64,000 nt of DNA from Acidobacteriota bacterium (lineage in GTDB: Bacteria; Acidobacteriota; UBA6911). Position numbers and translations under genes: made by a program. Shown here piece by piece: positions 34,085 to 35,638 of the stretch (position 1 is its first letter; every line of letters starts with the position of its first letter). The notes beneath the pieces are model-generated. The model worked only from the letters and a program-made list of their open reading frames with translations, had not been told where the DNA came from and made no database searches. Location: positions 5,024,001 to 5,088,000 of the forward strand of contig OY761556.1 in NCBI GenBank assembly GCA_963664705.1, in the 5' to 3' direction.

Positions 34085-35638
34085 TCACAAAGTAGATCCT
34101 CGTGGACGCGTATTTGGCTTTGGCAAAACCGCCGGAGATGACGATCTTCCGATATCGACCCTAGTATAGCCGCCTCCCAAGTTTTTCCCGGCTTTTTCAA
34201 ATGCCTGCTTTAACAGTGCGACATGGCCGACCTTTTTTGTTTTTTCCGGATCTACAACTCTCCCGTCTATTGTTGGGGGAATATCCTCGCCACCGTTTCC
34301 CGTCCACCGTCTGCCAAATACAGGTTCGGATAAAACGGTCTCAAATTCGCGGCGAAACCTTGCTTCCCATCCTGGTCTTACAATATGCCAGCCGTTATAA
34401 TAATTAATCTGTTCTTTTGCCTGCTTCACGTCGATGATGGCGGTGAATCCATCCTCATCTTTAAGTCCATGGTAGATCTTGGTTACAGGGATAGCACCCC
34501 AAATATTCGAACGGTCAATCCTGGAAGCTCCCCATTCCGGGAATGCCGCCTGGTCCACATAAGCTTGGTATCCGGCTGTATCGAAAAAATCTCCGTCGAT
34601 CAGTAAAAGAAATACGTTTACCTCCTGGCCAACCATTCGCCTGGCGGGGCCGCCATCTGCAAAATGAACGTCAAAAAGGGAGTCCTTATTGTCCGCTTGT
34701 ACGGCAGACGGCCAATCTGTCGGATCGGCTGGAAGGCCCAGGAACTTGGCATCGGCAAGTTTAGGGAAGCATATTGCCTCGGAAAAGGCGTGGGCGACGC
34801 TGACAACAAGATAATTGTCGTTATCCCTGTTGCCGCGACGATACCAAAAGCAATTTGTATTTCTCTGCAGGGAGAAAGGGTGCCAGCTCTGGTCGAAATG
34901 AAGCGCGCGCCGGCGCGCTTCAGAGTCCACCTGCCGCGTCAGTCCGCCAGCTTTCAGCACCTTATCATATGTCCGGGCTTCACACCTCCAGCCGATTTTA
35001 CGATTGTCCCCCATGAGGCCATGGGCGGTAAGCCTCTGACTGAAATCCCTAACCACTTGCAGTTGAACATCGTATCTATCGACAGATGGCATGGCGATCC
35101 GCGTGAAGGCACATTCCAGAGTTGCCTCCAGAAGGTCACGGACCAAGACATCATTGCCGATGTTTCTCAGCCGGCCCCTTAATTCGGGTTTGAGCTTTGG
35201 TTTTTTTAGAAGCTTGTCATAAACGAAAAAGTGTTGTGCCGCCAAAAGGAATTTTTTTTGTTCCGCTGGACTGGACCGTTTTTTTGCATCTATACGCCAG
35301 AAATAGAGGAACCAGACTTCAGGTCCGAATGGGGGTTGGATCTCCTCAACGTCGACGCCGAAAACATCATCCATGACCTGAATCATGCTTGGCCATTCTA
35401 TTGCACGCAACCACTTCCCGTCATTCTGGCGGGTAGGAAAGAGGCCCGATTCGCGCTGATTTTTGCGGCTACTGTTTGCCAATTGCTGGAGAAAAGAGGC
35501 AACTCTTTTCACCAATGTATCGAATTGCGCGTCGGACATCCGCCCCCAGGGAATGTCTTTCACCTCTTCCCCGGGAATACCATGAGCATATCGATGATCC
35601 AGTTCTTCAAAGTCTTGTCCTGTCAACATTTCAGGCAT
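34085..35638 (-). CDS. Orphan protein with a putative R-S-E class ADP-ribosyltransferase domain
   Basis: WR218CEARTYDKVLKAGGL, VVS280VA, FPE368WGASRIDRSNIWGAIPV parallel the cholera-toxin A1 motifs. Confidence 0.6.
   Translation of the reverse strand: MPEMLTGQDFEELDHRYAHGIPGEEVKDIPWGRMSDAQFDTLVKRVASFLQQLANSSRKNQRESGLFPTRQNDGKWLRAIEWPSMIQVMDDVFGVDVEEIQPPFGPEVWFLYFWRIDAKKRSSPAEQKKFLLAAQHFFVYDKLLKKPKLKPELRGRLRNIGNDVLVRDLLEATLECAFTRIAMPSVDRYDVQLQVVRDFSQRLTAHGLMGDNRKIGWRCEARTYDKVLKAGGLTRQVDSEARRRALHFDQSWHPFSLQRNTNCFWYRRGNRDNDNYLVVSVAHAFSEAICFPKLADAKFLGLPADPTDWPSAVQADNKDSLFDVHFADGGPARRMVGQEVNVFLLLIDGDFFDTAGYQAYVDQAAFPEWGASRIDRSNIWGAIPVTKIYHGLKDEDGFTAIIDVKQAKEQINYYNGWHIVRPGWEARFRREFETVLSEPVFGRRWTGNGGEDIPPTIDGRVVDPEKTKKVGHVALLKQAFEKAGKNLGGGYTRVDIGRSSSPAVLPKPNTRPRGSTL

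Follow-up and report, generated by a model that had tools for sequence, protein, structure and literature searches.

The gene at positions 34085-35638 (minus strand) of the Acidobacteriota DNA analysed here (a stretch of 64,000 nt, positions 5,024,001-5,088,000 of contig OY761556.1 in assembly GCA_963664705.1; hereafter the window) is predicted to encode an ADP-ribosyltransferase (ART) of the R-S-E clade, that of the cholera and pertussis toxins. Our overall reading, to which we assign a probability of roughly 55%, is that this ART-like protein is an R-S-E ART enzyme that uses NAD+ to modify a non-arginine acceptor, probably within its own producer cell. R-S-E ARTs are among the best-studied toxin enzymes, and their choice of target is usually read from a loop with the sequence E/Q-x-E; in the family described here, this loop reads [F/Y]-P-E. 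The fold and the clade are known. What is new to the libraries that were searched is the family itself, with its layout of three modules, an [F/Y]-P-E loop and no partner genes.

The reading frame contains 517 codons and a stop codon. Its ATG start lies 9 nt from a Shine-Dalgarno-like GGAGG (35648-35652, minus strand), the frame stays open for just 7 codons farther upstream (giving 524 aa) and the three closest homologues likewise begin with MP..., all of which agrees with the limits and residue numbers given in a preliminary description of this DNA. The three motifs quoted there in order, W217-R218-C-E220-A-R222, V-V-S280-V-A and F366-P367-E368, are present in the translation at those residue numbers, and no signal peptide was found with a crude hydropathy test, as had been stated. 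The observation on which that description was built is confirmed. The gene is present as a single copy in the 6.89-Mb, one-contig host genome, and its GC content (0.504, compared to 0.523 for the window) is inside the spread of the window's genes.

An AlphaFold2 model made with the family alignment had a mean predicted local distance difference test score (pLDDT) of 87.2 and a predicted template modelling score of 0.83, with only residues 489-517 scoring below 50. When this model was compared to the PDB with Foldseek, every row shown was a chain of pertussis toxin S1, cholera toxin A1, heat-labile enterotoxin (LT), CARDS, PltA, typhoid toxin or TreX/TreTu; the best E-value was 1.7e-3 and the template modelling scores by target were 0.32-0.56 (0.13-0.14 for the two CARDS chains, which are large). 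VIA-align, a method independent of Foldseek, was used to compare the model to 48,161 chains. Its highest score was for TreX (8s2m; score 10.1, root-mean-square deviation 2.8 Å, 123 of 128 residues, model residues 212-415, 15% identity), followed by scabin (8.8), EcPltA (8.3), pertussis S1 (8.1), LT (8.0), CARDS (7.4), pierisin-1 (6.8), MTX (6.3), Tpt1/KptA (5.2-7.0), DarT (5.0) and the PARPs (about 4.4). The cholera/pertussis-type fold that had been proposed for this protein from its motifs was thus recovered by both searches, with ART-superfamily chains at the top of each.

The positions of the three key residues in the model are those expected for the clade. According to DSSP, R218 (codon 34985-34987, minus strand) is near the end of strand 214-220, S280 (34799-34801, minus strand) is inside strand 279-282 and E368 (34535-34537, minus strand) starts strand 368-371; in the TreX report, R15, S54 and E100/E102 are described at the same topological positions. 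Based on the alignment ranges (residue 212 with TreX 9, residue 215 with LT 4), R218 is the probable counterpart of TreX R15 and LT R7. The beta1 arginine, the beta2 serine and the glutamate at the start of beta5 are all found, while E/Q-x-E, which the reviews describe as a characteristic but not universal feature of the ARTT (ADP-ribosylating toxin turn-turn) loop, is not. The model supports an ART fold of the R-S-E (cholera/pertussis) clade for this protein, whose family is undescribed. We place the ART-like protein in the R-S-E clade but not in Pfam Enterotoxin_a because the model of that family, PF01375, does not detect it; PF01375 also found nothing in a six-frame search of the host genome or in 401 genomes of the phylum, and the control genomes were silent too.

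An exhaustive HMMER search of 1.84 billion representatives retrieved 150 cluster representatives at E ≤ 1e-3, 82 at E ≤ 1e-10 and 3 (including the query) at E ≤ 1e-30. Query residues ~213-408 are common to nearly all of the 150, and a word-indexed search returned just two relatives (47-50% identity). Ten relatives that were looked up are metagenome singleton clusters, unnamed or hypothetical except for one labelled "DUF4157 domain-containing protein" and another labelled "Starch binding domain". Pfam has no match for the query at E ≤ 10, with neither Enterotoxin_a nor Pertussis_S1 recognising it, and no ART family was detected in 78 relatives, or in the 95 members of the family alignment at E ≤ 10. 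NCBIfam produced only a spurious match for the query (E-value: 0.12), a phmmer search of the PDB with the query gave noise only, and PADLOC-DB 2.0, a defence library dated 2023, assigned 0 families to the query, P0006, P0009, P0017 and P0123 (relatives are numbered P0002 to P0151). PHROGs matched neither the query nor 4-5 relatives, and a language-model atlas returned only unnamed clusters (0.90-0.91) for the ART core. The family is therefore unannotated, as had been suspected: it is a rare family of at least 150 cluster representatives outside Pfam, NCBIfam, PADLOC and PHROGs. Full-text literature searches, the coverage of which excluded the supplements and figures of PMC12945103, produced no earlier description of it, although this is not proof of absence. 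A family model would allow the annotation of these genes, now "hypothetical", in soil metagenomes.

Conservation was assessed in an alignment of 95 sequences, consisting of the query and 94 relatives drawn from P0002-P0100; the fragments P0053, P0072 and P0079 were left out, as were the long fusions P0083 and P0091, and P0101-P0151 were not included. The aligned relatives are 19-53% identical to the query. The preliminary description had named conservation of R218, S280 and E368 as one check on its proposal, and it held: S280 and E368 are invariant (95/95), as are P254, R267, D272 and P292, and R218 is present in 94 sequences, the remaining one being gapped there. W252 (94/95), N273 (92/95) and T354 (92/95) are nearly as constant. 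R218 is part of the motif [W/F/Y]-R-x-[D/E]-x-R, in which position 220 is D in 47 sequences and E in 44, and R222 is found in 84. S280 is the predicted counterpart of the first serine of the canonical S-T-S; it is followed by V and then by A, G, T or S, such that only the first residue of S-T-S is canonical. In the predicted ARTT loop (F366-P367-E368, codons 34535-34543, minus strand), the canonical E/Q position is occupied by F in 76 sequences, Y in 18 and A in 1, followed by P367 in 81. The replacement of E/Q-x-E by F-P-E, noted earlier in the single sequence, is thus a property of the family, with E/Q at position 366 in 0/95.

The only toxins matched by the family profile in the PDB were cholera toxin A chains (1s5b and 1xtc; E-values: 1.3 and 2, not significant). 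In these alignments, WRgdsR...GG of the profile is paired with YRADSR...GG of the toxin and ...IP...RVHhg with ...IP...RVHFG, the segment after the catalytic glutamate.

These data bear on whether the resemblance might be superficial, with no functional ART fold or with a catalytically dead scaffold. The lack of significance in the sequence-only searches, the weak Foldseek E-values and the incomplete E/Q-x-E and S-T-S motifs would all fit such a protein. We consider it very improbable for two reasons. First, only ART-superfamily folds top two independent structural searches. Second, R, S and E are retained in 94-95 of 95 sequences at 19-53% identity, which is unexpected for a dead enzyme. From the model and these residues, the ART-like protein is likely to be a catalytically competent, NAD+-using enzyme of the ART fold.

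Roles can be proposed for the three residues because their functions in the clade are established in the literature. R218, within R-x-[D/E]-x-R, and S280 would hold NAD+, and E368, the predicted catalytic glutamate, would polarise the nicotinamide ribose and cleave the nicotinamide-ribose bond, leading to ADP-ribose transfer. In the TreX report, the first glutamate of E-x-E is needed for transfer to arginine and the second for both hydrolysis and transfer. Since arginine-specific enzymes need the first glutamate and the equivalent residue here is always F or Y in the common form of the loop, the acceptor may well be other than arginine; because an invariant aromatic-proline pair takes the place of E/Q, another, shaped acceptor site is a better explanation of the change than decay. 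By analogy, a non-arginine acceptor has about even odds, with a nucleobase or another nucleophile that stacks on the aromatic residue as the leading guess. The precedent is the clam enzyme CARP-1, for which a figure legend gives Y at the E/Q position and which is reported to make N2-ADP-ribosyl-deoxyguanosine. CteC also lacks E/Q-x-E and is predicted to supply a residue from elsewhere in the fold; by comparison, R267, D272 and N273 could supply such a residue here. Net charge was considered as a hint of nucleic-acid binding and set aside, as the family is only mildly basic (median isoelectric point 8.6) and this is not discriminating.

The same loop could instead belong to an NAD+ glycohydrolase that depletes the cofactor without any transfer. 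The absence of E/Q at position 366 (0/95) is compatible with this explanation, given the division of labour reported for the two glutamates of TreX, and ART-fold NADases such as Tne5 have been described. We regard a pure NADase as unlikely: CARP-1, with Y at the same position, is reported to transfer to DNA guanine, CteC is reported to transfer without E/Q-x-E, the strict aromatic residue and proline together with R267, D272 and N273 suggest a shaped acceptor site, and an NADase that was neither restrained nor paired with an immunity gene would be harmful to the cell that makes it. If active, the family would broaden what is known of acceptor chemistry in the cholera-toxin clade and would provide a tractable bacterial counterpart to CARP-1, which is hard to express.

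The ART core forms part of a larger protein. Residues 1-99 (35342-35638, minus strand) form a helical region common only to the three closest homologues, P0002-P0004. They are followed by a family-wide N module (residues 100-205; 35024-35341, minus strand) with the motif W109-F-x-Y112-F113-W and G177-F178, the predicted ART core (residues 212-424; 34367-35005, minus strand), a C module (residues 425-482; 34193-34366, minus strand) made up of a helix, a beta-hairpin with W445 (85/95) and G449 (79/95) and a second helix, and a non-conserved tail (residues 483-517; 34088-34192, minus strand). The C module prolongs the ART sheet, a trait also seen in CARDS, pierisin and MTX, whose alignments reach model residues 452-455. 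Two elements of the earlier outline of the protein were partly upheld. The ~200-residue N-terminal region is indeed helical to residue ~205, but it is not simply an unknown appendage, since residues 100-205 are a conserved module; likewise, the low-complexity tail is real (residues 489-517 are predicted to be disordered, with pLDDT <50, and the tail is absent from P0002-P0004), but the conserved C module between core and tail had been missed.

Region profiles run over the 151 retrieved proteins matched the ART core in 151, the N module in 125 and the C module in 69. The 26 proteins without the N module are mostly short fragments or the most distant relatives. The usual length in the family is 420-520 aa, with the order N module, ART core, C module, and no forms of at least 906 aa were found in searches with the core alone and with the profile, which is weak evidence. 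Because of these profile matches, the uniform length and the absence of such long forms, the protein is, on this sequence evidence, a fixed three-part enzyme rather than a swappable toxin tip. When the N module was folded alone, its pLDDT was 56.6 (from a shallow alignment of 14 sequences), compared to 85-97 within the full model; the poor stand-alone model is compatible with a fold that depends on the core. The language-model atlas contained no match for the N module. As a proposed step in the mechanism, this always-attached module would serve either to recognise the substrate or to hold the core in check.

The biological role is the weakest step of the overall reading. Tentatively, we suggest that the ART-like protein acts inside the cell as a self-contained conflict enzyme of a defence-like or regulatory kind, for which a separate immunity gene would be unnecessary. 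A self-restrained role inside the cell is slightly favoured over that of an exported effector because the gene is solitary and patchily distributed, and its product is predicted to be cytoplasmic and carries an attached extra module with no antidote. A more specific version, in which the protein ADP-ribosylates nucleic acid, the aromatic-Pro-Glu element stacks on a base and the N module silences the core until a trigger such as phage infection, is an analogy-based conjecture that we consider quite unlikely. If true, such a base-modifying, self-restrained enzyme would be a new single-gene immunity or conflict system on a cholera-toxin scaffold, without an antitoxin. More generally, an active enzyme would show how a toxin-type core stays harmless inside its producer, and a defence or regulatory enzyme would represent a new use of the R-S-E scaffold.

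The main competitor is a toxin effector that is exported or injected, such as cargo of a type VI secretion system (T6SS) or another contractile-injection system directed against microbes or eukaryotic grazers, in which the N module would be a delivery or targeting part. Effectors that act on eukaryotes are usually encoded by solitary genes lacking immunity partners. The lone ART-like gene fits that pattern, as an immunity gene would be unneeded if the target were absent from the producer, and all of the closest structural relatives are secreted or injected toxins. A T6SS sheath gene is present in the host genome, albeit about 247 kb away. Three distant relatives also point in this direction: P0123 has an extracellular contractile injection system (eCIS) core (DUF4157) fused to an ART core that keeps FRGDSRP..., Ser and Glu, P0091 has a signal peptide and P0120 ends in a CBM20 starch-binding module. 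None of the three has E/Q before the glutamate (K-G-E, Y-T-E and F-P-E are found among them). As judged from their sequences, these proteins show that the lineage has been used in at least one injected-toxin layout but do not represent the core family; P0123 and P0091 lack the N module and have little bearing on the three-module proteins. P0091 carries the one clear signal peptide among the 151 relatives by the crude hydropathy test (a second flag, P0126, is a 154-aa fragment) and the query carries none. No PAAR, VgrG, Rhs, MIX or other trafficking domain was found with Pfam in the query and 78 relatives, the long forms expected of polymorphic toxins were not found (with the reservation given above), and the neighbours of 12 relatives are of housekeeping type. 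No eCIS core family was found in the host genome, although the control genomes were silent too. On balance, export is possible but doubtful.

Six distant members with an aligned catalytic glutamate have F, F, Y, W or K at the E/Q position. P0150 (581 aa) has His in place of the beta1 arginine (W-H-G-D-T-R) and W-P-E before the catalytic glutamate, and from its sequence may be an altered-chemistry variant or inactive.

The surroundings of the gene are consistent with the earlier account that it stands alone. Unique intergenic DNA of about 410-420 bp flanks it on either side. The genes downstream, on the same strand, are of the OleA, OleB, OleC and OleD type, and upstream are genes for a FecR_C-like protein, a small open reading frame (ORF) and an extracytoplasmic function (ECF) sigma factor, followed by a gene for a membrane MutS-domain-V protein, one for an alpha/beta hydrolase and one for a Fic protein; the OleABCD-type operon and the ECF sigma operon had both been recognised previously. 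No secretion, phage or immunity gene is beside the ART-like gene in the window, and neither a B subunit nor a conserved antitoxin is found among its neighbours. An inspection of homologue neighbourhoods, which had been recommended, covered 12 other loci; it revealed unrelated neighbours with no immunity gene and no adjoining secretion marker. Specifically, of the two homologues from phylum genomes, one is flanked by a DPP-IV peptidase and a Crp regulator, the other by an unknown ORF and a BNR/sortilin protein, and the 33 neighbour ORFs at ten metagenome loci include citrate synthase, a pilus ATPase, DnaJ, GluRS, an ABC transporter, PLD and others. Searched with Pfam, the neighbours in the window, the two genomes and the ten metagenome loci contained no immunity, macrodomain, ARH or NADAR family. 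A scan of the flanks for Rfam families, promoters and terminators found nothing above chance.

The gene is also sparsely distributed. Only 4 of 401 sampled phylum genomes have a match at E ≤ 1e-3, including the host genome and one marginal match with a stop codon, and the gene is absent from 3/3 genomes of the same genus and 3/3 of the same family. Two scans of about 185,000 species genomes confirmed no close relative, and a first metagenome scan for close relatives found none.

Such patchiness would suit a single-gene anti-phage abortive-infection enzyme, in which the N module would sense infection and free the core to modify phage or host nucleic acid or protein. The solitary gene, the predicted cytoplasmic location and the fixed layout of accessory module plus enzyme fit this role as well, ARTs such as DarT and CmdT are reported to act in anti-phage defence, and a strong SoFic match (E-value: 5e-121) is found 5 kb away, although one nearby defence gene is weak evidence. 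An anti-phage enzyme is nevertheless improbable in our view. PADLOC and PHROGs returned no match for the query or 4-5 relatives, neighbours at the other loci are not defence genes and no integrase or repeats bound the gene. Relatives are also missing from phages and plasmids: a tblastn search of 50,697 phage and 72,556 plasmid records gave no match, and no viral structural match was convincing (best E-value: 0.14). A mobile cassette was considered and rejected for want of evidence, as the flanks are unique, repeats are no longer than 8-9-mers, the GC content is within the spread of the window and relatives on phages or plasmids are lacking; integrases come no nearer to the gene than about 32 kb.

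An ART with a housekeeping or regulatory task, acting reversibly on an endogenous protein in the manner of DraT, would account for the chromosomal location, the GC content close to that of the window and the absence of an immunity gene. The host genome also encodes two ARH and two Macro hydrolases, all more than 2.5 Mb from the ART-like gene. Unlike a core regulator, the gene is missing from about 99% of the phylum genomes sampled and from those of the same genus and the same family, and no hydrolase or target gene is linked to it at any locus examined. We therefore judge this role to be decidedly unlikely.

Several points weigh against the overall reading of a non-arginine-modifying intracellular ART. 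The fold is itself a prediction, no Foldseek match reached E ≤ 1e-3 and the root-mean-square deviation was 7-10 Å for most rows. The sequence match to cholera toxin is not significant (E-value: 1.3), the Pfam Enterotoxin_a model is silent, and R218, S280 and E368 are equated with the toxin residues by way of strand positions and alignment offsets. This protein has V-A in place of the last two residues of S-T-S, and a relative, P0150, carries H at the arginine position. With respect to the acceptor, the argument draws on a single precedent from a figure legend, loss of the first glutamate could mean NAD+ hydrolysis only and mild basicity does not single out nucleic acid as the target. With respect to the role, the intracellular setting is argued from absences, the model of the N module on its own is poor, and the eCIS-core, signal-peptide and starch-binding fusions of distant members point outward.

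Comparison with characterized systems clarifies what is distinctive about the family. TreX, an interbacterial toxin of the Tre1 type and the C-terminal domain of a T6SS Rhs protein, is an R-S-ExE enzyme reported to modify FtsZ, whereas the ART-like family has [F/Y]-P-E; TreX sits at the tip of a long protein and has the immunity gene TriX beside it, whereas the ART-like protein comes with an N and a C module of its own, lacks Rhs and has no conserved neighbour. Cholera toxin A1 shares [aromatic]-R-x-[D/E]-x-R...GG and ...IP...RVH[H/F]G, which line up in the profile alignment, but LT and cholera toxin have an E-x-E of the E110/E112 type where the ART-like protein has F-P-E. Compared to the cholera toxin, LT, pertussis toxin, PltA and CARDS group, the ART-like protein has about 210 extra N-terminal residues, and unlike the AB5 toxins it has no A2 linker, B subunit or signal peptide.

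Among enzymes that act on DNA bases, CARP-1 is cited as an exception in its loop, and its Y at the ARTT E/Q position is akin to the F/Y of this family; CARP-1, which was compared by description only, is reported to have exclusively eukaryotic relatives, whereas the ART-like family is bacterial. Published work describes an auto-inhibitory form of pierisin-1 and an inhibitory loop in MTX and CARP-1, and an analogous restraint may operate in the ART-like protein, which lacks the ricin-type domain of the pierisin family. Scabin and ScARP are described with Q-x-E and an ARTT tryptophan; the ART-like family has F/Y for Q, and three positions before residue 366 the query has Q363 and no aromatic residue, in a loop where the alignment is gappy. 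NADAR, the guanine-ADP-ribose hydrolase family, was not found in the host genome.

The signature published for Tox-ART-RSE (Zhang et al. 2012) is RxDxR, S, [DN]xN and E. R218-x-[D/E]220-x-R222, S280 and E368 fit RxDxR, S and E of this signature. The [DN]xN element is not evident in the family; [D/N]353-T354 is found at a comparable place and may be its equivalent. Tox-ART-RSE domains are described there as C-terminal on trafficking proteins of type II, type VI and type VII secretion systems and as accompanied by Imm41 or ARH immunity genes, none of which occur with the ART-like protein.

A 108-aa ORF (33762-34088, minus strand) has a GTG start that overlaps the stop codon of the ART-like gene (GTGA) and is Cys- and Arg-rich. 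It was considered as an immunity gene and rejected: it has no PADLOC match, no similarity beside any relative (best E-value: 0.29) and no paralogue in the genome, and it is probably not a gene.

The other genes in the window include a complete OleA-OleB-OleC-OleD-type operon (28874-33675, minus strand) for olefin or beta-lactone lipid synthesis, made up of a FabH-like thiolase, an alpha/beta hydrolase, an AMP-binding enzyme and a 3-beta-HSD-type reductase. This operon is accessory here too, as no OleA orthologue was found in the same-genus and same-family genomes searched (25-31% identity only). On the other side, the Fic/DOC protein (Fic_N plus Fic; 40563-41729, minus strand), about 5 kb upstream of the ART-like gene, matches the PADLOC SoFic anti-phage model (E-value: 5.4e-121). 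Between it and the ECF operon is a gene for a 556-aa protein (37753-39423, minus strand) whose only domain is a MutS domain V (ATPase) at the C-terminus, with a centre that is hydrophobic and membrane-like; PADLOC gives it only a marginal mad8 match (E-value: 0.0056).

Two adjacent tyrosine-recombinase (Phage_integrase) genes (325-2579, minus strand), followed by small ORFs without a Pfam match (2910-5459), may mark the edge of an integrated element. A 1331-aa ORF (46230-50225, plus strand) has no Pfam match at E ≤ 1e-5. Outside the window, the T6SS sheath gene is TssC/VipB (G000:C1:5306054-5306953; E-value: 1.8e-138). Finally, P0006, P0007, P0010, P0013 and P0014 have Pro/Gly-rich, low-complexity N-terminal extensions before the N module (e.g. 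PPGAPGPPGGPP), and 5 of the 151 relatives contain more than 35% P+G in their first 60 residues.

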